NCBI GenBank assembly: GCA_000092065.1
Contig: CP000588.1
DNA: 64,000 bases
Strand: one strand, 5' to 3'
Origin: Ostreococcus lucimarinus
Taxonomy: Eukaryota
In this document: positions 4,011 to 58,592 of the stretch, piece by piece
Position numbering within the stretch: position 1 is the stretch's first letter
How the letters are laid out: every line of letters begins with the position of its first letter
Notes under the pieces: generated by a model
What the model was told of the DNA's origin: nothing
The model's input: the letters and a program-made list of their open reading frames with translations, nothing else
Databases searched by the model: none
Program-made: the position numbers and the translations under genes

Positions 4011-4252
4011 CTGCCAGTACGATAAAACGATAAAAATGGTCAGTGTCTTCGTTCGGGTTGTTTTGATGAAAAATTTCCGCGTCGACGTTGTTCCCCACAG
4101 ACGCGAGTCAGAGTGGTGCATGAATTGTTTCAACAAGGTAATTCAGATCAGGTCTGTGATTGGTGTATCATAATCATCAACCCCACGAACTGCGAGAGAA
4201 TCATTGGCGATTGATCGGTACGAGCGTTCGTCGCGCGCTTCGAAATACTTAC
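4011..4252 (-). other. NOP56: Spliceosomal intron of NOP56 (242 nt, GTAAGT...CAG)
   Basis: ORFs 4148..5122 and 3477..4136 are in different frames. Homology jumps from ...YLNNKMSV to VAPNLGA. Donor ATGAGTGTG|GTAAGT on minus strand at 4253/4252. Confidence 0.7.
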
Positions 4253-5487: not shown

Positions 5488-8148
5488 ATGAGTGATGACT
5501 CGAAGACGACGCACGGGGTACACGCGACGGATCGAGAGCGTCACTTTTACGCGTCGGCGACGCGCCGCGTCGGCGACGCGCCGACGCCGCGCTCGCGTCG
5601 TCGTCATTCCCGTCGCGCGGTCGCGCGGTCGGGACTCGTCGAACGATCGGTCGCGCGCCGAGGTGTCGCGACCCGCACTCGCCGCCGCGCGCGTTCGTTC
5701 CGCGCGCGCGCGATGCCGCTGCGACGCGACTACGCGAGCGCGGGCGCGAACCGCGGGACGCGATGCGCGACGTTCGCGCGCTGCGGACGCGCGACGGTGC
5801 ACTGCGGCGGCGACGGCGCGCACGCGCGCGCGATGGACGACGGAGGCGCGACGACGACGACGCGAGGCGCGGGCGCGCGCGCGACGTGCGTCGAAACGCT
5901 CGACGACGGACGAATCGTCGTCGGCGACGCGCTCGGGCGCGTGCGGGCGCGCGCGCCGGGCGAGGACGGGGGCGAGGGGGCGGTCGGGAGGCACGCGCGA
6001 GGACCGGTGCGGGACGTCGCGGCGGCGACGCGCGGGACCTTCGTCACGTGCGCGGACGACGGGGACGTCATCGCGTGGGCGACGCCGGAGAGGAACGAGA
6101 GCGGCGAAGAATTGAGAGAAATTGGGAGGTTGACGATGGCGAGCGCGAGCGCGCCGCTGTGCGCGGCGGTGACGCGCGCGCCGGGCGTCGAGGAGCGACG
6201 CGTGCTCGCCGTCGGGTGCGTCGACGGACGGACGCGGGTGTACGCGTGCGATTTCACGAACGAGGGCGCGGTGACGTTCGAGGCGTGCGGGGTTTTGGAC
6301 GGGCACGCGGATTGGGTGCGCGGCGTCGCCTTCGCGCCGACGAGGCGCGACGACGCCGTCTTCTTAGCGACGGCGAGTCAGGACCGCACCGCGAGGGTGT
6401 GGCGCGTGCAAACCGTGCCCGCGGACGGCGCGCGGGCGTCGAAGGACGCCGCGCCGTTCGCGCGTCTCGCCGCGCCGCCGGAGCCACCGAGCGCGGTGCT
6501 CGTCGGCCGGCGCGTGAAGACGTCGCTCGAGAGCTTGCTCATCGGACACGAGGATTGGGTCACGTCCGTGGCGTGGCACCCGGACGCGTCGAAGATGGTT
6601 TTGATGACGGCGAGCATGGATCGCTCGCTCGTGCTTTGGTCTCCGGCGGGCGCGCCGTGGACGAGCGAAGAGGCTGGCAGCGAGCTTTGGATGAGCTCGA
6701 CGTCCTTGGGCGAGGCGGCGGCGGTGTGCTTGGGGTACTACGGCGCGTCGTTTTCGCCCGACGGCGACGCGATAATGGCCAACAGTCACGGCGGCGCCCT
6801 ACACCAGTGGCTGCGCGACGACGATGGGTCGTGGCGTGCGATTCCGGGAACGTCTGGACACACGATGCGCGTGACGTGCTTGCGCTGGGACACCGCCGGT
6901 CGATGGCTCATGTCCGGCGGCGGAGATCAAACCGTCCGCGTGCACGCGCCGTGGCACGGCGACGGTCCGAAAGGTTGGCGCCAAATCGCTCGACCGCAAG
7001 TGCACGGCCACGACATCGTGTGTTTTGCTACGATGCACGACGACGCGGGGACGACGACGTACGTCAGCGGGGCGGATGAAAAGGTGTTGCGAGTTTTCGA
7101 AGCCCCCGGCACGTTCTTAGGAACCGTGATCAATAGTTTAGGAAACACGGACCCCGTCGCCGCGGCCGCGCTGACCAAGGCGAAGAACCTTTCTCTCGAG
7201 TCGCTCGGCGCCGAACTTCCCGCGCTCGGGTTGTCGAACAAGGCGCTTCGAGGCGCGGACGCGGAGGACTTGCCGAGCGACGTCGCGGGTCTTCGCGCGC
7301 AGGCGGCGCAGCAGGAAGGTTTAATCGAGGAATACAACGCGCGCGGCGTCGAAGCCATCACACCGCAGGCGCTCACGCACCCGCCACTCGAAGAAGTCCT
7401 CGCACAGGCGACGCTTTGGCCCGAAACGCGAAAATTGTACGGACATGGCAACGAAATTCGCGCCGTCGCCGCGCATCCGAGTGGCGATTTGATCGCTTCG
7501 GCGTCGAACGCGCTCACGGCGGCTTCGGCGGCTATTTGGGTCTGGTCGCGCGGACAGAACTGGAAGCCACTCGGAACTCTCAGCGGCGCGACACTCACGG
7601 TGACCGCGTTAGAGTTTACGCCGAGAAACGCCGCGCGAGATTACCTTCTCGCTGCGAGCCGCGACAGGCACGTCTGCCTGTTTGCGCCGTCGTCGCGCGA
7701 CGCGCCTCGAGGAGAATTCGGTGACGACGGGTGGCGCTTGCTGACGCGCTTCAAGGCGCACGATCGCGAGATATACGCCGCGTCTTGGGCGCCGTGCGGC
7801 GCTTTATTCGCCACAGCGGGGCGGGACAAAAAGGTGAAGATTTGGCGCGTCGTCGACGACGCGTGCGAGCCCGCGTGCGAGCTTCCCAAATTCACCGCCG
7901 CGCCGACGGCGATGGCGTTCGCGTCCGACCCCGACGCTCCACTCGCGATCGCAATCGGCTTCGACGACGGTGGGATCGAAGTCCACGTCGCATCCGCCGA
8001 CGCCGCGTCTTGGACGTTGTCGTCTCGCGCGTCCGCGAACGATCGTCACGGCGCCGCCGTGCGCGCCGTCGCGTGGCGTCCCGGCTCCTCCGCCGTCTTC
8101 GCCTCCGCCGGCGACGACCACGCCGTGCACGTGTACGAACACGAGTAA
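5488..8148 (+). CDS. ELP2: Elongator complex protein 2 (ELP2), WD40 repeat protein
   Basis: Multiple WD repeats. The C-terminal block LYGHGNEIRAVAAHPSGDLIASAS...AAIWVWS...LTVTALEFTP...LLAASRDRHVCLF aligns to the ELP2-specific region (LYGHGYEIFCV...AAIILWNT...SRDRTWSLW). The ORF begins at ATG 5488. The first ~110 codons are Arg-rich and the real start may be ATG 5713 or 5833 (both in frame). Confidence 0.7.
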   Translation: MSDDSKTTHGVHATDRERHFYASATRRVGDAPTPRSRRRHSRRAVARSGLVERSVARRGVATRTRRRARSFRARAMPLRRDYASAGANRGTRCATFARCGRATVHCGGDGAHARAMDDGGATTTTRGAGARATCVETLDDGRIVVGDALGRVRARAPGEDGGEGAVGRHARGPVRDVAAATRGTFVTCADDGDVIAWATPERNESGEELREIGRLTMASASAPLCAAVTRAPGVEERRVLAVGCVDGRTRVYACDFTNEGAVTFEACGVLDGHADWVRGVAFAPTRRDDAVFLATASQDRTARVWRVQTVPADGARASKDAAPFARLAAPPEPPSAVLVGRRVKTSLESLLIGHEDWVTSVAWHPDASKMVLMTASMDRSLVLWSPAGAPWTSEEAGSELWMSSTSLGEAAAVCLGYYGASFSPDGDAIMANSHGGALHQWLRDDDGSWRAIPGTSGHTMRVTCLRWDTAGRWLMSGGGDQTVRVHAPWHGDGPKGWRQIARPQVHGHDIVCFATMHDDAGTTTYVSGADEKVLRVFEAPGTFLGTVINSLGNTDPVAAAALTKAKNLSLESLGAELPALGLSNKALRGADAEDLPSDVAGLRAQAAQQEGLIEEYNARGVEAITPQALTHPPLEEVLAQATLWPETRKLYGHGNEIRAVAAHPSGDLIASASNALTAASAAIWVWSRGQNWKPLGTLSGATLTVTALEFTPRNAARDYLLAASRDRHVCLFAPSSRDAPRGEFGDDGWRLLTRFKAHDREIYAASWAPCGALFATAGRDKKVKIWRVVDDACEPACELPKFTAAPTAMAFASDPDAPLAIAIGFDDGGIEVHVASADAASWTLSSRASANDRHGAAVRAVAWRPGSSAVFASAGDDHAVHVYEHE

Positions 8149-22890: not shown

Positions 22891-23125
22891 ATCGTTCTCC
22901 CGCGCGTCCGCGTCGCCGTGTGCCGACGCGACCGCTCGAGCGATCGTCCAGGGGCGCGCGCGCGATCGTCGCCGCACACCGCGACGCGCGTCGCGCGCCC
23001 GCGACCAGTTCCGCGCGCGTTCGCTCGCGCGCGTTTCGCGTCACCGTTTCGCGCGGTTTCGTCGCTCGAACGCGCTCGACGGCGACGCCGCGCGCGGATT
23101 CGTCGCGCGCGCCGGCGCGCGCGCG

Positions 23126-38587: not shown

Positions 38588-40006
38588 CTACGTCGGTAAG
38601 AGCCTGTCGTCGACGTCGCGCGAGTCGTCGTCGTCGTCGTCGTCTAAGACGCGTTGTCGGCGCGCGTCGCCGCCGGCTCGCCGCGCCGCCGTCGCGAAGA
38701 CGCCCGCGGCGACGACGAATAAGAGCGTGAACGTCGAACACATGGTTCGCCAGCGCTCGGGCGTGGGGGCGCCATCGCGCTCGAGGAAGTGCCCGAAGAG
38801 CGGCGGCGATGGGACGTCGCCGAAGAGGTGAATGGTGACGGTGGTCATCGAACACGCGAGCGGGCGCAGACGCGCGGGGACGCTCCAGAGCACGACGGCG
38901 TTGATCGGCGCCTGTAACGCGAAAGCGAACATTTGTCCGATGAGCAAGCACACCGCGAACGATGCGAACGTTTGACACCTGAAAGCGAGCTCGAGGCACA
39001 CGAATCCCCCGACGGCGGCGATGGCGGACGTGCGCAACGCCGTCGCCGTCGAGCTCCCCAACTTGTCCACGACGCCGCCGCCGAGAAGCGTGCCCGCGAT
39101 CCCGCTCACGACGGTGATCGCACCGAGGAGCATGTCCGCGTTCGTCGACGTGTGTAACTCATCTCGAAATATCGCGAACCCGGCTTTCGGTCCCCACGCC
39201 GCGTACACGCCGATGACGGCGGTGTACGCGGCGTACCCGAGCACGACGACGACGTACGTCTCGCGCACGAACAACTCTTTACAATCTCGCGCGAACGCGC
39301 GCGTCAACGACGCCACCGTCGACGTCGCCGCCGCCTCGCGCGCATTCGCATCGCCTCCGACGCCTCGCATGCGCACCGCCGGACGCCAGAAGCAGTACGC
39401 CGCCGCGGGCGCCATCGCGCACGCGTTCAACCCGAACGCCCATCGCCACCCCATCGCCGGCGTCACCGCCCCCCCGAACGCGATCCCGAACGCCACCCCG
39501 AACGGCACGCACGCGTAGAACATCGCCAACCACATCGTCTTCGCGCCTTTCGGCGCTTTATCATCGATGAACGGCGCCGCGAGCGCGATAAAACTCGCCT
39601 CTCCCGCGCCCACCAGCGCGCGCGCCGCGAACGCCCACCCGCACGTCGGCGCCAGCGCGCATCCGAGCTCCCCCACCGCCGCCATCGCCAGCCCGATCGC
39701 GATCAATCTGAACGCGCACGCTTTATTCGCCATCGCGCTGAACGCGGGCGCGCCCGAGAGCAGTCCGATCATGAACGCCGCGTTCAGCGCTCCGTACGCC
39801 GCGTACGAGCACCCGAGCGCGCCCTGCAAGCCTCGCCCCGCGGGCTCGCGCGCGCTCCTCGGCGCCCCGCTCACCGCGGCCGAGCTCGCGATCCCTCGAT
39901 CGACGTACACCAGCGCGCTGACGAGCATGAAGAGTCCCAGCAGCGCCTCGGCGCTCGCGGCGTCGTCGACGTCGTCGTCGGACGGCGATTCCCCGCGCGG
40001 CGTCAT
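38588..40006 (-). CDS. MFS transporter, Spinster-like (SPNS family)
   Basis: 12-TM pattern. LFMLVSALVYVDRGIASSA resembles the Spinster N-terminal motif (NYMDR). Gly/Ala-rich helices. Acidic C-terminus. Confidence 0.6.
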   Translation of the reverse strand: MTPRGESPSDDDVDDAASAEALLGLFMLVSALVYVDRGIASSAAVSGAPRSAREPAGRGLQGALGCSYAAYGALNAAFMIGLLSGAPAFSAMANKACAFRLIAIGLAMAAVGELGCALAPTCGWAFAARALVGAGEASFIALAAPFIDDKAPKGAKTMWLAMFYACVPFGVAFGIAFGGAVTPAMGWRWAFGLNACAMAPAAAYCFWRPAVRMRGVGGDANAREAAATSTVASLTRAFARDCKELFVRETYVVVVLGYAAYTAVIGVYAAWGPKAGFAIFRDELHTSTNADMLLGAITVVSGIAGTLLGGGVVDKLGSSTATALRTSAIAAVGGFVCLELAFRCQTFASFAVCLLIGQMFAFALQAPINAVVLWSVPARLRPLACSMTTVTIHLFGDVPSPPLFGHFLERDGAPTPERWRTMCSTFTLLFVVAAGVFATAARRAGGDARRQRVLDDDDDDDSRDVDDRLLPT

Positions 40007-40180
40007 CGCGTCGTCGTCGCGCGCGCGCCGTACCGGGGAATCGTCAGGTCGGGCGACGCGACGCGGTGCACGCAGCTCGCGCCCGCGAGCAGGCTGGCGA
40101 GGCTCACGACGTACGCGCGCGCGGGGAGCATGCGCGGCGATGTGATGCGCCGCGCCGCACTTTTCCGCGCGTCGCGCGTC

Positions 40181-41368
40181 ATGGCGTACGCGACGCTCGA
40201 CGCGCGCGCGCTGGGCGATTGGAACGCGAACACCGCGCGCGCCGCGACGACGGCGTACGCGCGCCGCGACGCGCTCGACGCGACGGAGTCGTTTTTCGAT
40301 GGATTTTCGTGGCAGCGCGAGGGACGGTTCGGAATGTCGTACGACGTCGCGCGACGCGCGTTCGCCGTGTTTCGCGAGCGCGACGACGAGAGCGTCGGCG
40401 TGACGCGCGCGCGGACGGGCGAGCGCGCGTACGACGCGGCGATATCGCCGAACGAGGACGTGTTCGCGGCGACGGCGCGGGACGCGCCGACGACGACGCG
40501 GCGCGCCGACGGCGACGGGGAAATCGTCGCGTCGTACGTCAGCGTCGATCGACGGAGCGATGAACCGCGATCGGCGTGCGGCGTGGGATACGTGTGCGGG
40601 GGGACGATGCTGGCGTGCGGCGTGGATGGGGCGGTGGATGTGTTCGACGTGACGAGGCCCGGGCGAACGCCGGCGACGCGCGCGGAGACTCGAAGTAGGG
40701 ACGATTTAGATGGGGGAGGGCAACGGGGATTGGTGTCGTGCGTCGACGCGTGTCCGACGGAGAATCATTTGTTTTGCGCGGGGTCGTACGCGGGAGGGCG
40801 AGACGCGATCGATTGTGGGGTGTACGACGCGCGCGCGGAGGGCGGTCGCGCGTGCAGTTGGTCCGCGCGCGGCGGCGGCGTCACGCAAGTTCGATGGAGC
40901 GTCGATGGAAATTTTATTTACACCGCGAGTCGCAGAAGTGATGACATTTTGTGCGTGGACGTGAGAAATACGCTCGGTGTGGTGTACGCGCTGAAACGCG
41001 CGGCGCACGGGACGAATCAAAGGATTCGGTTTGATTTAGAGCCGTGCGGCGCGCACTTAGTCACCGGCGGCGTCGACGGATTCGTGCGCGCGTTCGATTT
41101 GCGCACGGGCGAAGAGGTCGGCCGCACGCAAGTATCCCCGAACGGTGCGTGCGTGAACGCGGTTTCGTTTCATCCGTATTCGTGCGCCGTCGCGGGCTCG
41201 AGCGAGAAATTTCGCCGACTCGCGTGCGTCGTCGGCGAGCGCGTCTTCGTCGACGTTTCCGGTGATGACTCCGACTCCGACGACTCCGACGACTCCGACG
41301 CCGTTAAACGGAACGATTTCGGCGTGTCTTTTTGGGATTACCCGACGATCGAAGCGTCGTGGGCGTGA
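40181..41368 (+). CDS. WD40 protein resembling telomerase Cajal body protein 1 (TCAB1/WRAP53)
   Basis: Reads QRGLVSCVDACPTENHLFCAGSYAGG (cf. QSGIISCIAFSP..LYACGSYGRS). GTNQRIRFDLEPCGAHLVTGGVDGFVRAFDLRTG (cf. [30 protein letters not shown]). CVNAVSFHPYSCAVAGSS (cf. CTNGVSLHPSLPLLATAS). ATG 40181. Alternative in-frame ATG 40130. Confidence 0.5.
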   Translation: MAYATLDARALGDWNANTARAATTAYARRDALDATESFFDGFSWQREGRFGMSYDVARRAFAVFRERDDESVGVTRARTGERAYDAAISPNEDVFAATARDAPTTTRRADGDGEIVASYVSVDRRSDEPRSACGVGYVCGGTMLACGVDGAVDVFDVTRPGRTPATRAETRSRDDLDGGGQRGLVSCVDACPTENHLFCAGSYAGGRDAIDCGVYDARAEGGRACSWSARGGGVTQVRWSVDGNFIYTASRRSDDILCVDVRNTLGVVYALKRAAHGTNQRIRFDLEPCGAHLVTGGVDGFVRAFDLRTGEEVGRTQVSPNGACVNAVSFHPYSCAVAGSSEKFRRLACVVGERVFVDVSGDDSDSDDSDDSDAVKRNDFGVSFWDYPTIEASWA

Positions 41369-41452: not shown

Positions 41453-42475
41453 ATGGACGCCTCAACGTCGCTCGTGGACGAGTACGCGCGACTTCCTCTC
41501 TGCGCGCGCGCGCTCGTCCCTTATGCGCTCGTCATTGGCTTCGTTTTGAACCCGTTGTTCAGCTTGGATGATTTCGTCGCGTTTTGTCCGGGCGACATCT
41601 TACGCCGCGCGCAGTTCCATCGCGTGTTCGCGTCGTTGCTGTACATCGAGGGCGCGTTCTCCACGCTGCTCGTCGCGTGGGCGGCGTTTCGCGTCGTCGC
41701 GCCCTGGGAGCGTTCGCGAGGGACGTTGAGGACGCTCAGCGACGCCGTCGCCGCGTCGGTTCTCGCGAACGCCACGACGACGTGCTTCGCGACGATCGTG
41801 GGCGCGTTCGTGCCCGCGGTGTTTGAAGTTAACTTTTTAGGAGGCACGGGGGTGTTTACGAGTTGCTTCGTGTTGTTTACGCGCGAAATTGCGCGCGCGC
41901 CGGCGAACACGGATTTGGCGACGCCGTTCGGCGTCGCGATGCCGGCGAAACGCGCGCCGTACGTTACCGCGGTGATTTTGGTGTTTCTGGGAGGGTGTAA
42001 TCCACTCGAAGTGCTGGCGTGCTTGTACGTTGGCAACGCGTGGGCGGCGAATGGGATTGTTTGGGCGACGGCGAGCGACGGTACGCTGGCGCAGCTCGAG
42101 AACGGCGCGCTGCGATTCGCGAGCCGACAGCCCGGATACGTCGCGGTGAACGGGCAGATGTTGCCCGTCGACTCGCGCGATAGTAGCAGCGATAATTCTA
42201 GCTCAACGGCGAGCTCGTTCGTCGAAGGTGTGGCGGCGATGGTGTCCAACGCGGCGCGCGAGGCGAGACGCCGATTCACCGAAACGGCCAATCGAAGCGC
42301 GGCGCCCGCGGCGGCGACCACGCCCGCGGCACCCGCGACGGCAGATGAAGCCCCGTCGGCATCTCGTGGAGTAGATACGAGACCAAAGCCGCAGACGCGA
42401 GAAGAGCGCGCGGCGGCGTTTGCGGCGGCATTCGAGCGGCGAAACTCAGACGACGCAGACGACGACGCGACTTGA
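41453..42475 (+). CDS. Multi-pass membrane protein (possibly rhomboid-like/derlin-like superfamily), family uncertain
   Basis: ATG 41453. Several hydrophobic helices (PYALVIGFVLNPLF, FASLLYIEGAFSTLLVAWAAF, TAVILVFLGGCNPLEVLACLYVGNAWAANGIVWA). Ser/Ala/Pro-rich acidic tail. Confidence 0.45.
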   Translation: MDASTSLVDEYARLPLCARALVPYALVIGFVLNPLFSLDDFVAFCPGDILRRAQFHRVFASLLYIEGAFSTLLVAWAAFRVVAPWERSRGTLRTLSDAVAASVLANATTTCFATIVGAFVPAVFEVNFLGGTGVFTSCFVLFTREIARAPANTDLATPFGVAMPAKRAPYVTAVILVFLGGCNPLEVLACLYVGNAWAANGIVWATASDGTLAQLENGALRFASRQPGYVAVNGQMLPVDSRDSSSDNSSSTASSFVEGVAAMVSNAAREARRRFTETANRSAAPAAATTPAAPATADEAPSASRGVDTRPKPQTREERAAAFAAAFERRNSDDADDDAT

Positions 42476-47299: not shown

Positions 47300-50200
47300 T
47301 GGTGCGAGCGATGACGGCGCGGGCGTGGGCGCGCGCGCTGGGCGCGGAGCGACGGACGCTTTCGGGACGCGCGGCGTCGGCGCTCGCGAGACGCGAGACG
47401 CGACGAAGGCGCGACGACGACGAACGAACGAACGACGACGAGGCGCGCGCGATCGGCGCGGATGAGATGTACGTGCGATTGTGCGAGCGGGACGGGGACG
47501 ACGGACGAGCGCGAGCGATGGATGAGATGTTGGCGGCGTTGGAGGCGAGCGCGGGCGAAGACGCGGCGGCGATTCAGAGGTTGGCGTTCGCGCTCGAGGG
47601 AAGCGGTGGTGGTGGGAACGAGCGCGCGAGCGGGGCGGGGGGGCTCGAGAGGATCGATGTCGTCGCGAGCGCGGGGCGGGATTGGAGCGCGGTGCCGGAT
47701 GTCGGTCGGTTGCGAATCGCCGCGGCGACGACGCGAGAGTTCGCGATGGAGGACGACGGCGCGGAGGCGGCGAGACGCGTGCCGGGATTGCGGCACGGTG
47801 CGGTGTTCGGACTCGACCGGGCGGTCGTGGACGAGGGCGACGGCGACGACGACGACGACGACGGCGACGACGATGACCGTGTTGTGAGTGGTGAAATAGA
47901 TAGCGCGAAAGATGACGACGCCGGCGGACGCGACGCCGGCGTCGCGGACAAGGCGCTCGCGTTAGACAGAGGGTCAGGCGACTCTGCGTCGCTTTGGCTC
48001 GCCGCCGCGGCGGATATCGAGACTACGACGTTGCGTTCGTGTTGGGATACGCGAAACGCCGGTGCGCGTGCGACTTCGAGTGCGCTCGACGCGGAAACGT
48101 TTGATCTTGCGTATCGACGCGCGTTTCGGCCGGTGAAGGGGATTGATACCGAGCCCGTCATCGCGAGCGAGCGTGATTGCGCGCACGTCGTCGCAATGGC
48201 GCTCAGTGGGTGTCAAACGAGCGCAGACATACTCGTCGCGGCGGCAGCAAGCACAGGTAGTGGTGTACGCATGCGTTTCGCGTCGAGCTCGACGCTGGCG
48301 TTTAGGAACGCTTTGAAAACTATGGCGTCGGCGGCGGAGCGCCGATGCGAGCTCGACTACGCCGTCAGCCGCATGACGACGCCATACATGCGACCGATGG
48401 CGAGCGCGATACGCGATATTCTTCGCGCCCACGCCGCAGCGTTGCAAGCCATGCCAGAGGCGACGGCGGAACGGCGTCTCGCCGAGCGCGATACTGTTGA
48501 CGACCTGACCGAAACGCAATCGGACGTAGGCGACGTCACGTTACTCGAGGTCACCGTGCACACGAAACGTTTGCGTCGTCAAGTGGATATTATTTTCAAC
48601 CTCATCACCGACGAGCGGTCGTTAGATACTTCTTTGGTGCCGCATCCGGTGTTGATCCGTCGTCTGGAGACGTCGCTGTCGCACGTGGAGGATGAAGAAA
48701 CACCGATGATTCAGTACTTGTATGCGCGAGCGGCAAAACCTATCATCGACGACACCTTGTCTTGGATATACGCTGCGGCGCCGCCGTTTTCGAAGTCAGA
48801 GTTTTTCATAGAGTGCTCGCCAACGTGGTCAAATCTTTCTACATTTCATGAAAGTCCCGTGCGAGGAGGCGCGCCGCCGTGCTGGCTCGGCGGCCGCGCG
48901 CACGATGGCGAAGACGAATTCGCGGAGACCGATACGCTCACCATCGCGCGTGTTCGGTCGAGTGTGAACCCCGCTCTGGCGGTCGATCGAGCGAAAGAAG
49001 TCCTCCGCATTGGTTTGCAGCTTCGCATTTTACAGCGATTGCCGCACACGCGCGGGTTTGCACGCGCTGTGAAAGATGCATTCGTCAAAATTTCGGCGTT
49101 TCAAGCGCACACAGAGCGCGATGCCAGGCAGTGGCTCAATCGAGTGCGCTTGCTCGAATCGCGCGTCGTCGCGCTGGCTCGAGAAAGCACGAACAGCATG
49201 CACGAGATGCGCGCCGCACGAGCGCGAGAGTTGGACTCGGCGAGAGCAGCATTCGTCGCCAAGACGCGCGCCGAAATACTGGCGCGCGAAAAAACGCGAC
49301 TAAGACGTCTTGAGGAGATCGACGAATCGAAGCGAGTGGAGCGTAAAGGGCAGCTCGAAGAGTTGGACGAACGTGAAAAGCAACGTCGCGACGCGCGCGC
49401 GCAAAAGATTGCCGACGAGCGCGCATGGCTTGAAGATCGAGAGGAAAAGCAGCGCGCCTTTGAGCAACAAAAAGTGGAAAAGAAGATGGAAGAAACGCGC
49501 TTACGCCTTGAACAAGAGGATGCGAAATTAGCGTGGTTTCGATGGCACGAAAGCCGTCTGGTGCTTAATGATAAGCGAAGAGCCTTCGTGCGCGCAATGG
49601 AATCAGTGCAAGAAGAAGAAGCAGTGACCGCGCTCGCAAACGCGATGAGCTTAGGTTTCGCGACGTCGCCATCACCGTCGAACGACCTCTTCATCGAGCC
49701 CTTCGAGAGTGTCACGCCAACAGTGATGATTGAAGAAGCCGAAGAGGTGAATGTTATCGAAGAAGACGACATCGCATCAGACGATTTTGCCGACGCTTCC
49801 GAAATGTTCATCGACGAATCCGCGACGTCGTCGCCGTCGACAGTCTTATCCTTACATTCCGCAGATGACGATGAGCGCAGCGTGGATATAAAAGAGAAAG
49901 ACATCGTGGAAACTGTTTCGGCGCCGGACAACATGGACGAGATGCGTGACGGCGCAAAAGATCTTGAAACGCACGACCACACATCTCGAGCGTATTTGGG
50001 TGAAGCTTTCGGCACGCCTTTGCCACTTTTGTTGGAACAAGAAATGCGCGAAATCATCACACGCCAATCCGATGTTTTGGGACGGTACACCACGACAGTG
50101 CTTATGGATCATCTCGCGCTCGAACTTCATCTTGACGCCATCGTTCGGTTCACCATGGGAGGTGAACTCGGCTTCGCGGACGCGCTGCTGAACAATCTAC

Positions 50201-51793: not shown

Positions 51794-53902
51794 CTAGTCC
51801 GAGTCGTGTTCGTCGTCGGCGATTTCGTCGGCGTTCTTCTTCGCTTTCGGGGTGAAACCATCCGTCATGAGCGTCTTCAAGTCTTCGCCGCTGAGTTTCG
51901 AGAGCTTCTTCGTCAACGCCCTGGAGAGGTTTTCGATTTCGGGCTCCATATCTTCGCAGAGCTCGCCCAAGAACGGAATGGCCTCCGGTAAGAGCTGCAA
52001 GTATTCCTCTTGGAGCTTGTCGACGATTTGTTCGATCGTCATGATGCTCAAGACGCGAGTACGGATCTTCGAGTCGCGCGAACACATGAGCACTGCGCGG
52101 TGCAACGGTTTCCAGTGAGCGTCATCGGGCGCCGCGGCGAGGAGCGACGCGCACGCACCGACTGCTTCAACACCGAAAGAACCTTCGCGCATGAACGTGT
52201 CGTAGTCGTCTTCGTCGGAATCCGACGGTGGCGCCGCCTTGAGCTGCTCGACCACCATCGGATAGAGCGAGTTGAAACGGTTCGACTCGATGAATCCGAC
52301 GTTGTCGTACTGGAAGCAACGTCTCAGAGCGGCGAGCGTCCACTTTCGCATGCGCCAGATATCGTGTTCTGACAAACTCTCGGCGTTCACGCTCTTGCGC
52401 TTCTTTTTCCCCGAGCTCGTTGGATCGGCGGCGACGTCCAGCGCCGCAGCCGCAAGATCGAGCAAGTGTCGGAAGAAGGGCACGAAGACGGCGCGAAGCT
52501 CGTCCGCGAGCGCGGCGGCGAGCCTGAAGAGCGCGGCGAGACGTGTGCGGGTGACATCGGCTTCGCCAGAACGCGCGCGCGCCCACTCGACGCACTGCAG
52601 GAAAAACGGCAAGAATTCACTTTCGGTGCACTTGAGCGCCAAGGCGACACAAGCGTCGACGGCTTTACCTTCGATGACGTCAAGAGCCTTCTCGGGGGCG
52701 CCCACCGGCGCATCACGCCTGATATCGAGCGCGCGTAGTACTATGCTGAATAATTGCTGTCTGTGTGCGTTCGTCGCCTTTGCAGAATCGCCGGCGGCGG
52801 CGATGATTTCGAGGAGCGCCGCGCACGACGCCGCGCCGTCTTCGCCGCCGTAAGTTAAGCACGAGTCCCAAGATTCCACCAGTGGCCGAATGAGCAATCG
52901 GAGCTCGACGACGTCTGGTAATTCTCCGCGAAGCTCCAACGCTAAATCATGTAAAGCCTTCGTCTCACCCGCTTCTGTGCCGGCTTCGCCATCGCACTGT
53001 GGCACCATTGCTGGGTGCAACGCGACCTTGATGATGTCTCCGAGAAAGGGTGAAATAAATCCGGCTACGTGCTTGACGAACATGCGCAGCGCAGCTAGGC
53101 ACGAGTGCGCAACGAGCACGAGCTCTCCCACATCGCTGTTGCCATGAAGCGCGTCTGCGCTCGCCAATGTAGTCTTAAGAAGTGCTGGTATCGCAGTGTT
53201 GACGACAGCGACCATACGAACACCCAAGATCTTTGAAAGCGTCGCCAACGACAGCGCCGCGGACGCTTTAAGCGTAGCTGACGCCCCTTCCAGCTGCGAG
53301 ATGACGGCGGGAACCACAGACAACAAGGGCTTCGTCGCCGCTTGTGCGACGCTGAAACGCACAGCAGCAGCTTCTAGAGCCATGAGCGCTGCCTGTGACG
53401 TCGTCACGCTCTTGGACTGAATCAACGCTGAAAGCTCTTCGATCAACGCGATACCCGCTTGCGTCTCCACATCATCTTCTTCCGTACTTTCGGTACTCGC
53501 GTTTTGTAGACGTTCGGTGACGAGTGTCAGCGCCTTTCGACGGACGCGCCCTTCCTTATGATCGAGTAATGGTGTCAACGCGCTCAAGAATGGACCCGAA
53601 GCCAGCAAGCCGTTGAGCGCGCTCAACAGACTTTGTCCGCTCGCCTCCGCCTTTGCCGCAAGTTTCGCTGGAGATTTACCTGGAGATTTTGATTTCTCTG
53701 ACGGCGTGCCATCATTAACTCCCACCGATTGCAAGAGCACAATAGCGGACTCAGCTAACGCGGCGTAACCCCTTTGAAGGCCTGCTTTCTCATCCTGATC
53801 CATCGGACGTTGTTGCGCACGAACGAATCGAGGCGAAGAGAGATGCTTGGCGGCGGACTCGGCGCACATGCGCACAATACGCCCTCCCTCGGAAGCAGAT
53901 TC
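51794..53902 (-). CDS. HEATR1: HEAT repeat-containing protein 1 (HEATR1/UTP10/BAP28), exon 3 of 3 (C-terminal BP28CT region)
   Basis: Reads ...EAIPFLGELCEDMEPEIENLSRALTKKLSKLSGEDL (cf. HEATR1 ESIPFLAELMEDECEEVEHQCQK). Acceptor ttgtcag|GAA TCT at 53903/53902. Confidence 0.75.
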   Translation of the reverse strand, partial: ESASEGGRIVRMCAESAAKHLSSPRFVRAQQRPMDQDEKAGLQRGYAALAESAIVLLQSVGVNDGTPSEKSKSPGKSPAKLAAKAEASGQSLLSALNGLLASGPFLSALTPLLDHKEGRVRRKALTLVTERLQNASTESTEEDDVETQAGIALIEELSALIQSKSVTTSQAALMALEAAAVRFSVAQAATKPLLSVVPAVISQLEGASATLKASAALSLATLSKILGVRMVAVVNTAIPALLKTTLASADALHGNSDVGELVLVAHSCLAALRMFVKHVAGFISPFLGDIIKVALHPAMVPQCDGEAGTEAGETKALHDLALELRGELPDVVELRLLIRPLVESWDSCLTYGGEDGAASCAALLEIIAAAGDSAKATNAHRQQLFSIVLRALDIRRDAPVGAPEKALDVIEGKAVDACVALALKCTESEFLPFFLQCVEWARARSGEADVTRTRLAALFRLAAALADELRAVFVPFFRHLLDLAAAALDVAADPTSSGKKKRKSVNAESLSEHDIWRMRKWTLAALRRCFQYDNVGFIESNRFNSLYPMVVEQLKAAPPSDSDEDDYDTFMREGSFGVEAVGACASLLAAAPDDAHWKPLHRAVLMCSRDSKIRTRVLSIMTIEQIVDKLQEEYLQLLPEAIPFLGELCEDMEPEIENLSRALTKKLSKLSGEDLKTLMTDGFTPKAKKNADEIADDEHDSD

Positions 53903-54111
53903 CTGACAAGTCGAAAAAGTAGGTTAGTCGCGGCTTCATGGTGTCACGCTCGTGGCAAATCGCGTACGAGCGATTTCTCAGAAGGAAAGCAGCAGATTCG
54001 TATGTCTCATCAATGGAATCAGAATCCTGACACAATGAATCTTTCATCATCGAAAATCAAACACGACACGAGCGGCGCTGAAAACTGTTTTGCGAGTCGA
54101 GTCATACGTAC
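53903..54111 (-). other. HEATR1: HEATR1 intron 2 (209 nt, GTACGT...GTCAG)
   Basis: GCG CTC AAG|GTACGT donor at 54112/54111. The two large ORFs are in different frames. Confidence 0.7.
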
Positions 54112-57100
54112 CTTGAGCGCGTCCACGAGTGCATTCACCGCAGAAATCGGGGTTTCGCGAACGAGTAGCGCGTCGAGTAATTCCGCGACCCATGCATCGT
54201 CATCGGCAACAGGTAGGTCAGAGGTATCCACTGCGGCGGCGTATGGAGCTCGCGCTTCTCGAGCAGACGATTCCAAAGACTTTGAACGGCGTATCAAATT
54301 CAAGATAATCGCCGGAAGCGCCTCGCCAGGGGGTGCCGCACGAACAAGCGCCGCACAAATGGGAGCACGTCGACGTGTGGGCGCATGAGGCAGCGAATCT
54401 ATGAGCCTGCTGACGACGTTCATTAACGATTCACCACTTTGTAACCACACCGGAACGACGGCAACGAGCGCACTCTCTAAAGCGCGTTGAGACAGTACAT
54501 CGTCGTTCGCAGCGGCACGAGCGGATAAAGCAGATCCGATGTCAAACACATGACTCAGGACCGCTTCCGGTTTCGTGTGCGCAATTTGTGCCAAGCACGC
54601 AAGCGCTGCGCTTCGCGCAGCGCCTTCGTCTACCTCGCGAACGGCGCGAATGATAAGCGGAACGTTCCACTGTTTTCCACCGACTTTTGCGAGCGCGAGA
54701 GACTCCAATGTACGCAAAGCGAGCGCTTCGAGATAACCTCCTGCAGCAACACCTGCCTCGTCGTCGTCTGACTCCTCAAAGTCTGAGTCTTCGTCCATCG
54801 TCTCGCGAGCTTTAGCTCGCGCAGCCGCATCATTCATCATCGCCTCTAGAAAGTTTTGACACGGCTCGACAAGCGTGTCGAGATTATCAGTCTTGTCAAG
54901 CTTCCACGCCAGCACTTCGAGCGAAGTAGCCGCTGCTTGCGTAGTTTCGCTCGAGCCGAGCGAGAGACTCGAATGTGCGTCATCGTCCGCCTTTTTACCT
55001 TTCTTCTTTGACGGCGGCGCTGTCGGTGCGTCAGCTAACGCAGCGTTCAACGTCTTAACGACATCCTTGGCGTCAATCGTCAGCGCGTCGACGGCATTTT
55101 GCGCTTCACGTCTCGAAATGTCGTCAGTATCGGCATTCACGGCGCTGAACAAAATCTTGAGCAGCTGTGATTTCGGCCCGCTATTTAACGCGGCGACGAA
55201 TTCACCAGATATCAGGTTGAACGCCGCAGTACGAACGGCCGAAGGTGAAGGCGCCACCATGCACCTAGACAAAATTGCCCATCCCTCGCCACCATCTTTG
55301 CCGAACGACTTGGCGAGCTCGGGTGTGTACACGTTCATAATCTCAACCATCAACGCCGCTTTTGCCGTTTTAGAGTCGTCTTCGAGCGTTTGTAAGCACC
55401 ATGAAAGCACCGGTAACAGTATTGAAGCCTTCGTCGTCGCATCGCCCAATCCGCGAGTCGTCGCAACTAAACATCTCGCACCGTACGCATCCATCGCCGG
55501 CCTTGTCTCGCTCGTCATTTCCTGTACCGGCTCCAAATACGCGGCCAATTCATCCGATGGCGACTTGGCGGCGTTCACACCGTCTTCGATAGCGCGGCAC
55601 AAAGCTGTGGCACCCTTCAGCGCGATCTCTTCGGCGGCCTTTGTTACGGATTTGACTATGTTGCTCGCTTTCTTGTCGCGCGCATATGCCGAAAGAAGTG
55701 CCGCGGCCGCCGCACGCACCGGCGACGCGGATGATGCGGCGGCAACGATTACTGGTGCGATTGGCGGCAACTTAGAACACGCGGTGCAGAGCTCCAAAGC
55801 GGCGACTTGCACTCGCGCGTCTTCAATCGATGGATCAGAGGCGAATTTGGACGCAAGGAAAGCGCTAGACCCCGCGGCACCGTAGCAACGATCGCACGCA
55901 TTCAGTACTTCACGCAGAAGCTCGCCGATTCGGGCGTCAAAAGCATCGTCCATACGACCAGTCTTCGTATCCTTCGCTTCGGTGGTGGCGAGAAGCTCAA
56001 AAGACTCGCTCAAGTACTCGTCGGCGTCAACACTCGACTTCTTTGAAGTACTCGCAAGAACTGCGCGCAAGACAGATCGATGGCACGACGGTAAAAACTT
56101 CCGAGCAGCTGAATCGCTCGACACGAGTTTGCACAAAGTCTCCGAATCCGGCAACGCGTCGGCAGGAAATATTTCGTCGTTTTGAACGCCTCGCACCTGT
56201 CCCACGCCACCTTCATTCCACGAGTCGCGAATGATGGCCCACGAAGCCGCGCGAAGCGCTGAAGCCGCGGCGGTCGACTTCCCGGACGTCTTCTCTATGG
56301 CAAGCTTACATGCAATGAAGAACGTCATTCTACCGATCCCAGTTGCGTCTCTGTACACTTCACGAAGCCACAGCACGCGTGACGTGTGTTCGTCGCCGCC
56401 CGTACCCCAATCGCTCGCTAAAGATTCCGCGAGCGCTGATAAAACAGCCTGATTGCACTTTTCCTCAAACATGCGTCGCTCGTCGCCGTCTTTGCTCGAT
56501 TTACTGTCCTCGGCGACGGATTTAAGAGAATCAGAGCGAATTCCGTCGAGTGCGGGATGTGGGCAACTTCTGGCGGCATTTAACGCCGACTTGGTGACGT
56601 TTCGAAGCGCCGGCGTCGTGGAGAAGAGAACATACTCATAAGCCAGCGCAGCAGCTCGACCTGCGAGCGCTGACGGCGCAGTGTGGTCTAGCGATTTCGA
56701 AAGCACGCCAATCGTCAGACGAAGCGCCCTCTTTGCTAAGCGGCGCTCGCCGTCGCTGTTCGGACTGCCCGCTACGATCGCCGTCATCGCCGCGCTCAAT
56801 CGCGCCTTGGCGGCGGCGAACAAGGCTACGTCATCGGAAACCATTCGACGCAACGAATCGAGGTCCATCGCCGCCGCAGCTACGCGCGGATCGTCATCTG
56901 ACACCCGTCGAAGCATAGCTGGACCGAGCGCAGACCCATTCTTAAGTGATGACGGGACGTCCTCCCCACCGTCGCCTTTATCTTTGCTCAACTGCGCCAG
57001 CTGCGCAATCGCGTTTTCTCGCAAACTAGCGTTGGGGTGATCAAGCGCAGCGTGAATTGACATCGCGTGTCCAATCATGGGCCCAGCAGCCGAACCGAGC

Positions 57101-57855
57101 AAAGCATCACGCAGGAAAGCCGCATCTTCTTCGCTAGCAACCATCTTCTCCTTCTTCTTCGTCACTTTCTCAGATGTCTTGTCTTTTCCGCTCTTTGCCG
57201 CAGCACCGCGGAAAATAAAATCTACCGCCTCGCTCGTGGCGACAGGTCGGCACTGATCGGCCAGTTTCAACACCGATTTGGCCATATCTGCCGCGGCTGT
57301 ACTTTTCTTTGCAGTTTGCAACAGTACAGGCAACGCCGCGATGAAATGCTTCCCCGTCAGCGGAACCTTTTCAATCACTCCTCGCAAGACGCGTTCATAA
57401 TTCGAGTGCACGTCGGCAAACTCGGCGAGTGAACGCATGAGCGGGATTGAAAACGCATCCGCACGATAGCTGTGTTCCAAATCCGCGACTAATTCTTCCA
57501 ACTCGGGAATTTTCACCAAATGCTTGAACGCGCGCTCGGGCAAAGCCTTGACGCGCTGCGTTTGGCACAGAGCCAGCATCGCCTGCAAAGCCTGCGAGTG
57601 CAAAGGTACTCGCGTACCCTTGGCGATTCCTTCGAGTAGCGCCTCCACGAGCGGCTCACCCATTTTCGTGCGAGCCGCGAGCTGGGTCGCAACCATGAGC
57701 GCGCCCGCAAATTGCTCCGAATTCGCAGTCGACGCCAAGCCGGCTTCGAGATACGGCAAAAGGCGCGTCGTCACCGTTGGATCGACTTCCTTCATCAGGC
57801 CTATCGCCTCCGTGATGAGCACGGCGTAGAACGCCGACGTCGTTCCAACGTTTCC
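54112..57855 (-). CDS. HEATR1: HEATR1/UTP10, exon 2 of 3 (HEAT repeats)
   Basis: 1248 codons of HEAT-like helical repeats. Together with the flanking exons it gives ~2177 aa (human HEATR1 2144 aa). Confidence 0.75.
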
Positions 57856-57911
57856 CTGTGAAATGAAAAATATATTGTTAGTTTCACGAGTACTCGTGCG
57901 CGTGATTAAAC
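57856..57911 (-). other. HEATR1: HEATR1 intron 1 (56 nt, AT-rich, ATC|GTTTAA ... aaCTAACaa ... tttcacag|GGA)
   Basis: Exon 1 frame ends TAA at 57906 unless spliced. The only GT before it is at 57910-57911. CTAAC is a branch-point-like motif. The acceptor is in phase with exon 2. Confidence 0.5.
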
Positions 57912-58592
57912 GATCCAATCGCCGTGGAAAACAAACAAAAAAGTCGTCGCCGGCGCCTCGAAGTCACGCACCTTTGCCGTCGCCATCTCCGTCGCACTCT
58001 GCGCACAAAACGTAAAAAATGCCTTATCCTTCGAACATCGCACCGCCAACGCATCTCTCGGCGGCGCCGCGCCCGTCTCTTTCACCCCACCCAACCACTT
58101 AAAATGCCTACTATTCTCCAACTGACACGTCTGCGTCGCTTTGACGAACGCCGCCGTCCCGTGCCACGGCAATCCACACGCGATGAGCGCGTCCACGTCG
58201 TACACGTGTATCTTAAACCGCCGAATCAAGTATTCAAGCGTCTCACTCGCGCACCGTTCGTTAAAGTACCCGCTCAGCAACCGCAAATATCCCTCCACGC
58301 GCGCGCTCGTCGCCGCGAGTTCCTCCGCCGTCTCCAACTCCCTGTGTTTCCCCTCCGCCACGCTTCGCGCGAACAGCGTCTTCGCGTGTAGTTCGAACCG
58401 CCCGTCCCTTCGGCACAGCTCTTCGAATCCTCGCGCGCCGATCGCGTGCGCGGTCTCGCGATCGACGTCCGCGGCGTCTTTGACGTCGTACAGCAGCGAC
58501 GCCTTCGCGTTCTTTCCGATGCGTCGCTCGTGCGCGCCGGCGCGCTCCTGGAGCCCGCGCAGGGCGTCCGCGAGGGCGGTGGACGGCGCCAT
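57912..58592 (-). CDS. HEATR1: HEATR1/UTP10, exon 1 of 3 (U3 snoRNP10 N-terminal domain)
   Basis: Reads MAPSTALADALRGLQ...ASLLYDVKDAADVDRETAHAIGARGFEEL...LEYLIRRFKIHVYDVDALIACGLPWHGTAAFVK. Collinear with the HEATR1 N-terminus (ASLLFDPKEAATIDRDTAFAIGCTGLEEL..LEWLIHRFHIHLYNQDSLIACVLPYHETRIFVR). ATG 58590-58592. Confidence 0.75.

Follow-up and report, generated by a model that had tools for sequence, protein, structure and literature searches.

The gene at positions 40181-41368 (plus strand) of a stretch of Ostreococcus lucimarinus DNA (NCBI GenBank assembly GCA_000092065.1, contig CP000588.1; 64,000 nucleotides, in the following called the window) is in all probability the O. lucimarinus orthologue of TCAB1/WRAP53/WDR79. 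It would represent a minimal form of this family, which consists almost wholly of a seven-bladed propeller and would act on box H/ACA ribonucleoproteins (RNPs). The coding sequence is a single exon of 395 amino acids plus the stop codon. The original prediction for this locus had described a TCAB1/WRAP53-like WD40 protein in a green alga, and this description is borne out by searches of the Protein Data Bank (PDB), by Foldseek and by a family profile. The identification is correct but ordinary, since plant and green algal members of the family have been recognized and named before.

Family membership is carried in the first place by the distance between TCAB1 and all other WD40 proteins of known structure. 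A phmmer search with the single protein against 177,635 PDB sequences returned human TCAB1 at E = 8.8e-24, with ERB1 as the next protein at 3.3e-5. A profile built from seven Mamiellales orthologues and run against the PDB matched residues 164-472 of human TCAB1 at E = 5e-40 (140.7 bits), and the next match followed at 2.3e-10 and 43 bits, leaving a margin of about 100 bits. The lead of TCAB1 over the other solved WD40 proteins thus amounts to about 20 orders of magnitude in the search with the protein alone and to about 30 in the profile search. A generic WD40 family as best match, the outcome that the original prediction had named as speaking against it, was looked for in both searches, and the best match was TCAB1 in each (8.8e-24 versus 3.3e-5 and 5e-40 versus 2.3e-10, respectively). 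In the opposite direction, residues 164-478 of human TCAB1 were compared with the whole window by tblastn, and the sole match was found at 40286-41176 (E = 4.9e-27). The gene is therefore the unique match inside the 64-kb window, to which this reciprocal search was limited. The other WD40 gene of the window, an 886-amino-acid open reading frame (ORF) for elongator complex protein 2 (ELP2; 5488-8148, plus strand), provides an internal negative control and reaches just 1e-3 in the same search.

A profile of the algal proteins, searched exhaustively against 1.84 billion representatives, found 296 of them below 1e-30. Among its top 150 is a mammalian TCAB1 (P0128) that is 94% identical to the human fragment. 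Over 321 residues, the Bryopsis protein GMH37475.1 (P0016) shares 47% identity with human TCAB1. Together with the forward searches against the PDB, this outcome is in agreement with orthology. Named members are found by the algal profile as well, including 'telomerase Cajal body protein 1' of the liverwort Riccia fluitans (UniRef), and the O. mediterraneus cluster members carry the same designation as their JGI label. Word-indexed homologue searches returned just 12-13 Mamiellales proteins, all of them unnamed, and a scan of the protein against NCBIfam, a prokaryote-oriented library, matched nothing relevant. In the sources examined, the O. lucimarinus 90%-identity cluster is labeled only 'WD40 repeat protein' or 'hypothetical protein', and the present result supplies the correct functional name for the gene. 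The accompanying statement that TCAB1 homologues are poorly documented outside opisthokonts was overstated, given that plant and yeast homologues appear in reviews, that the Arabidopsis protein has been studied and that database names exist. WRAP53 homologues are reported for plants and yeast (PMC4371746), and for the Arabidopsis member both a name, WRAP53 (At4g21520), and genetic data exist (PMC10542627; PMC6356271). A literature search retrieved no paper on a TCAB1 protein in green algae.

The structural comparison points in the same direction. The AlphaFold2 model was built on a 70-member family alignment; an earlier alignment of seven sequences gave a predicted local distance difference test score (pLDDT) of 58, and that model was not used. 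The final model has a pLDDT of 88.4 and a predicted template modeling score (pTM) of 0.90, and it comprises seven blades of four strands each. When it was compared with the PDB by Foldseek, ranks 1-4 were taken by the TCAB1 chains 8oue_K, 7trc_K, 7v9a_B and 7bgb_K from structures of the human telomerase H/ACA lobe, with E-values from 2.8e-24 (8oue_K) to 6.7e-20 and template modeling (TM) scores up to 0.75/0.84. The first protein other than TCAB1 was WDR5 at 3.7e-16. The predicted structure is thus a seven-bladed WD40 propeller that superposes best on TCAB1.

The layout of the protein, of which all elements lie on the plus strand, can be followed along this model. It opens with an N-terminal beta-strand, AYATL (residues 2-6, 40184-40198; predicted strand E2-6), in a segment with a mean pLDDT of 89 over residues 1-10, and Y3 of this strand is invariant across the Mamiellales alignment. 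Blades 1-6 are predicted to span residues 39-317 (40295-41131) with four strands per blade, and this region aligns to human TCAB1 164-472. Blade 3 carries an RPGR motif (residues 159-162, 40655-40666) that constitutes a family signature: it is invariant in a 12-sequence alignment from algae to mammals, and P160 and G161 are retained in at least 66 of the 70 family members. Two further stretches align with the human protein in HMMER, namely the CAGSYAGGRDAIDCGVYD block (residues 199-216, 40775-40828), whose human counterpart is CGSYGRSLGLYAWD, and the FDLEPCGAHLVTGGVDGFVRAFD block in blade 6 (residues 284-306, 41030-41098), which includes G300, the equivalent of human G435. Blade 7 (residues 325-393, 41153-41359) is modeled with strands E325-330, E346-351, E381-386 and E389-393 and is split by an acidic loop. 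The sequence blocks and the last WD blade on which the prediction had been founded are therefore present, and two of these blocks align residue for residue with human TCAB1.

The positions that read RNA in the human protein deserve particular attention. In cryo-electron microscopy work on human telomerase, A413 of the CAB box (ugAG) is held in a pocket of Q415, Q482 and R483, and G414 hydrogen-bonds with R387 (PMC8648750). In addition, human TCAB1 has a beta-hairpin (residues 317-326, with K321 and S325) in contact with the P8 stem and an NHP2-interacting loop made up of residues 483-489 (PMC10811338). We counted the conservation of the equivalent residues over the 70-member family alignment. 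Arg251 (40931-40933) corresponds to human R387, the G414 contact, and is arginine in 70/70 sequences. Q280, the equivalent of human Q415, is part of a TNQR motif (residues 278-281, 41012-41023) in which T is found in 67/70, N in 68/70, Q in 70/70 and R in 64/70 members. The GERVF motif (residues 352-356, 41234-41248) matches human G481-F485, which in the human protein contributes to the A413 pocket and begins the NHP2-interacting loop; its glycine is kept in 70/70 and R354 in 69/70. Position 353, human Q482, is a glutamate in the algal protein; 16/70 family members have E at this position and 46/70 have Q. Hence three of the four CAB-box recognition residues are identical (R251, Q280 and R354) and one shows a conservative change (E353). 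Only five columns are invariant throughout the 70-member family, namely R251, D260, R262, Q280 and G352. Judged by this alignment, the presumed RNA-reading residues are the most constrained part of the protein, because R251 and Q280 never vary and R354 does so in just one of the 70 members. Two further positions are conserved: Arg262 (40964-40966; R in 70/70) corresponds to human R398, and G300 (G in 68/70) to human G435, both of which we take to be sites of dyskeratosis congenita mutations (R398W for the former). As a separate observation, the RNA-pocket residues are unchanged despite the fast evolution of Mamiellales TCAB1.

The GERVF motif leads directly into the acidic loop of blade 7, G352-E353-R354-V355-F356 being the equivalent of human G481-Q482-R483-V484-F485. 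This Ser/Asp-rich loop, VDVSGDDSDSDDSDDSDAVKRNDF, covers residues 357-380 (41249-41320) between strands 2 and 3 of the blade and contains the acidic run SGDDSDSDDSDDSD (residues 360-373, 41258-41299). The original prediction had taken the SDDSDDSD sequence for an acidic tail, which proved incorrect: it is a loop inside blade 7, and the two final strands come after it. Indeed, 22 residues follow the acidic run, and in the model they supply the two terminal beta-strands, 381-386 and 389-393, and the final-strand segment FGVSFWDY matches human LQLWW. The mean pLDDT drops to 60-65 over residues 361-380. All family members have an acidic stretch of variable length here, which in mammals reads, for example, PEPTDSEDEGEQ. 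According to the model, the acidic run is a disordered loop, and its place corresponds to that of the acidic stretch found in the human protein after the NHP2-interacting loop.

For the algal protein we propose the following mode of action. The protein would dock next to NHP2 on box H/ACA RNPs, at their apical loop, and would recognize a short CAB-like motif in this loop. Such recognition would mark a subset of guide RNPs, those of the small Cajal body-specific RNA (scaRNA) type that direct small nuclear RNA (snRNA) modification, for a distinct nuclear fate. Candidate partners are available in the genus, since in O. tauri 35 H/ACA small nucleolar RNAs (snoRNAs) are expressed, and five guides that target snRNAs only are potential scaRNAs (PMC7671301). 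Binding to H/ACA sca/snoRNPs is the more likely function compared to a role in telomerase. The designation 'telomerase/Cajal-body scaffold' of the original prediction describes the human protein and could at most be extended to the algal one by analogy.

Several observations weigh against this interpretation. One of the four human pocket residues is changed (Q482 to E353), G178 and R182 stand in place of the beta-hairpin contacts K321 and S325, and the NHP2-contacting E487 and P488 vary within the family; the equivalents of human F164, R298 and H376 are not conserved either. The chlorophyte Bryopsis has a protein that is 42% identical to the mammalian one and just 34% to that of O. lucimarinus. 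Mamiellales TCAB1 is unusually divergent, and because of this divergence some change of function is possible. At the RNA level, a search of the whole window with Rfam at gathering thresholds returned no family, and the E-value mode returned four sub-threshold matches (three snoRNA-like and one miRNA-like); neither mode revealed a scaRNA or a telomerase RNA in the 64 kb. Gene order is of no help: on a metagenomic contig with synteny to this region, genes for DNA polymerase alpha, a cytochrome b6f assembly factor (CCB2/CCB4), the MFS transporter, TCAB1, 14-3-3, PTH2 and ABC1 kinase are found, and this order carries no functional signal, as expected in a eukaryote. Finally, Cajal bodies are still present in Arabidopsis wrap53 mutants, and no association of the protein with coilin was observed (PMC10542627). 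The Cajal-body part of the animal mechanism may not carry over to the alga.

Could the protein instead be a true subunit of the telomerase holoenzyme, which binds a CAB-box-like loop of the Ostreococcus telomerase RNA and is needed for assembly or recruitment? We regard this as unlikely, even if orthology to human TCAB1 and the retained CAB-pocket residues are what such a subunit would display. To our knowledge Drosophila has no telomerase, and as the family persists in this fly, membership of the family does not imply a telomerase role. Drosophila WDR79, which belongs to the same family, binds scaRNAs (PMC3884663). Moreover, the telomerase RNAs of Viridiplantae are RNA polymerase III (Pol III) transcripts with type-3 promoters, ciliate-like rather than Pol II transcripts of the H/ACA scaRNA type, and in O. 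lucimarinus six telomerase RNA-like loci have been predicted, with telomerase RNA homology in none (PMC8287931). The Arabidopsis homologue is listed just as a structural homologue, with no telomerase link described (PMC6356271). On the other side, dyskerin (NAP57) associates with Arabidopsis telomerase RNA (PMC8450087, PMC13447467), and on this basis H/ACA proteins are not foreign to plant telomerase. A related idea is that the intact CAB-type pocket signals an unrecognized class of RNAs with CAB-like loops in O. lucimarinus, an alga with a very small genome, possibly including the missing telomerase RNA, which eluded a promoter-plus-homology search that succeeded in other green algae (PMC8287931). 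We consider this idea speculative and very improbable; if true, the link between TCAB1 and telomerase would predate the split between opisthokonts and plants.

Two explanations dispense with specific RNA recognition by a TCAB1-type pocket. The protein may belong to the TCAB1 family and serve as a protein-protein scaffold, for instance in snRNP assembly, splicing or the DNA-damage response, with little or no sequence-specific binding of RNA. Human WRAP53 does scaffold SMN/coilin and DNA-repair factors (PMC4371746, PMC10473218), Arabidopsis wrap53 alleles act as suppressors of a splicing-reporter phenotype and leave Cajal bodies undisturbed (PMC10542627), and the Mamiellales orthologues evolve fast. 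We nevertheless hold a pure scaffold to be distinctly unlikely, as the most conserved positions of the family are the RNA-contacting R251, Q280 and R354, a pattern that is difficult to reconcile with a loss of RNA recognition. That the protein is a generic WD40 member of some other family, such as THOC3/Tex1, Prp19 or a CDC20-like protein, with ordinary WD-repeat similarity to TCAB1, has a negligible probability. Its top Pfam match is indeed Beta-prop_THOC3 (E = 7.5e-11), followed by other propeller families, yet at 42 bits this match falls far short of the gathering threshold (305), and a scan of 70 TCAB1-family members, with the mammalian protein among them, gave it below threshold in every one. 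Because the same match recurs in 70/70 family members and Pfam has no TCAB1-specific model, it is no evidence for THOC3. We rejected the THOC3/Tex1 identity along with the Prp19 and CDC20 readings of the Pfam matches, as TCAB1 stands about 100 bits ahead of every other WD40 protein in the PDB and at the top of the structural search.

Recognition of H/ACA RNPs by a TCAB1 orthologue thus being the preferred reading, its wider meaning lies in the distribution of the conserved residues. The RNA-reading residues are the most conserved TCAB1 positions from mammals to picoplanktonic green algae. The ancestral function would accordingly be the loop-specific recognition of RNA on H/ACA RNPs, and neither telomerase nor Cajal-body scaffolding. 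A propeller-only protein of 395 amino acids is furthermore a possible bait for the scaRNA-type guides of Ostreococcus and a possible probe for any connection with telomerase RNA; the alga is transformable and its snoRNA set has been catalogued.

With respect to the gene itself, 40130-41368 (plus strand) forms a single ORF of 412 amino acids, in which Met18 at 40181 gives the 395-amino-acid protein. The latter begins with MAYATLDARALG and ends with EASWA before the stop codon at 41366-41368. An in-frame upstream ATG at 40130 allows for a possible N-terminal extension of 17 codons, MRGDVMRRAALFRASRV (40130-40180, plus strand). In the alignment, the orthologues of other species start at an M-x-Y-x-R-L-D motif that corresponds to 40181. 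For this reason 40181 was taken as residue 1, a choice supported by the conserved N-terminus of the aligned orthologues, and the ATG at 40130 is a possible alternative start. Metagenomic gene calls use both, with cluster members of 412 and 395 amino acids. No intron needs to be assumed, because the ORF aligns unbroken over the entire TCAB1 WD40 domain. The GC content of 40181-41368 at the first, second and third codon position is 0.65, 0.56 and 0.78, respectively, and dN/dS is 0.29 in comparison with a 92%-identical orthologue from another sample (L002). The low dN/dS ratio indicates that this is a real gene on which purifying selection acts, as judged from the sequence comparison.

Upstream and in divergent orientation lies an MFS transporter gene (38588-40006, minus strand), an exact match to the O. 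lucimarinus CCE9901 protein XP_001419283.1 / A4S113. The interval between its start at 40006 and the TCAB1 gene (40007-40180, about 125-175 bp) is very GC-rich, and the arrangement implies a putative compact bidirectional promoter shared by both genes. Downstream, 41453-42475 (plus strand) encodes a protein of 340 amino acids that exactly matches XP_001419073.1 / A4S115 of the same strain and is named 'Derlin' in UniRef or predicted protein. No Pfam match is recorded for it in the syntenic contig, and its C-terminal tail is rich in Ser, Asp and Ala.

The window also contains two candidate box C/D snoRNAs. The one at 53974-54055 (minus strand) is well-formed, with C (ATGATGA), D' (CTGA), C' (TGATGA) and D (CTGA) boxes and a 6-bp terminal stem (GATTTC...GAAATC), and reaches 36.2 bits with Rfam snoU83 versus a gathering threshold of 50. 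It adjoins the 3' end of an ORF at 51794-53875 (minus strand) and shares a 37-nt overlap with the upstream limit (TTG) of the ORF at 54019-57918 (minus strand). The second possible box C/D snoRNA (4102-4187, minus strand; TGATGA...CTGA...CTGA) has no obvious terminal stem and scores 32.9 bits with SNORD33 against a gathering threshold of 44. Two other Rfam matches were judged to be due to chance and rejected. At 23022-23092 (minus strand) a trypanosomatid H/ACA snoRNA model gives 28.7 bits versus a threshold of 40 in a GC-rich region that overlaps long ORFs and has no ACA box, and at 47845-47945 (minus strand) mir-598 gives 31.4 bits versus 69.

Compared to human TCAB1 (WRAP53-beta/WDR79, Q9BUR4; 7bgb_K, 7trc_K, 7v9a_B, 8oue_K), the algal protein shares the seven-bladed propeller, which is aligned from human residue 164 to 472 and on into the G-Q-R-V-F motif. 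The algal protein keeps R387, Q415, R483, R398 and G435, and both proteins have the acidic loop at the same position after the NHP2-interacting loop. The human protein is 548 amino acids long versus 395 in the alga, which is devoid of the N-terminal region of about 150 residues and of the C-terminal extension, and identity to mammalian TCAB1 is about 28-30%. Blades 4 and 7 contain Mamiellales-specific insertions with respect to the human protein.

Within the green lineage, Arabidopsis WRAP53 (At4g21520, NP_193883.2) has 425 amino acids and is, like the algal protein, essentially a WD40 domain alone (PMC10542627, PMC6356271). The closest land-plant proxy for it, the Riccia protein, is 33% identical to the algal one. 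Genetically, Arabidopsis WRAP53 suppresses the splicing phenotype of a coilin mutant and is dispensable for the integrity of Cajal bodies (PMC10542627). The closest named relative is the O. mediterraneus A0A7S0PL39 cluster (P0014), which has the same architecture and the acidic loop in blade 7. Within this one genus the identity to the O. lucimarinus protein is 45%. Its UniRef name is 'DUF2415 domain-containing protein', whereas the protein of the window has no DUF2415 match at E <= 1. In terms of function, the nearest parallel is offered by Drosophila WDR79, which binds scaRNAs and has been used to immunoprecipitate new ones (PMC3884663), and it is a telomerase-independent function of this kind that we propose for the algal protein.

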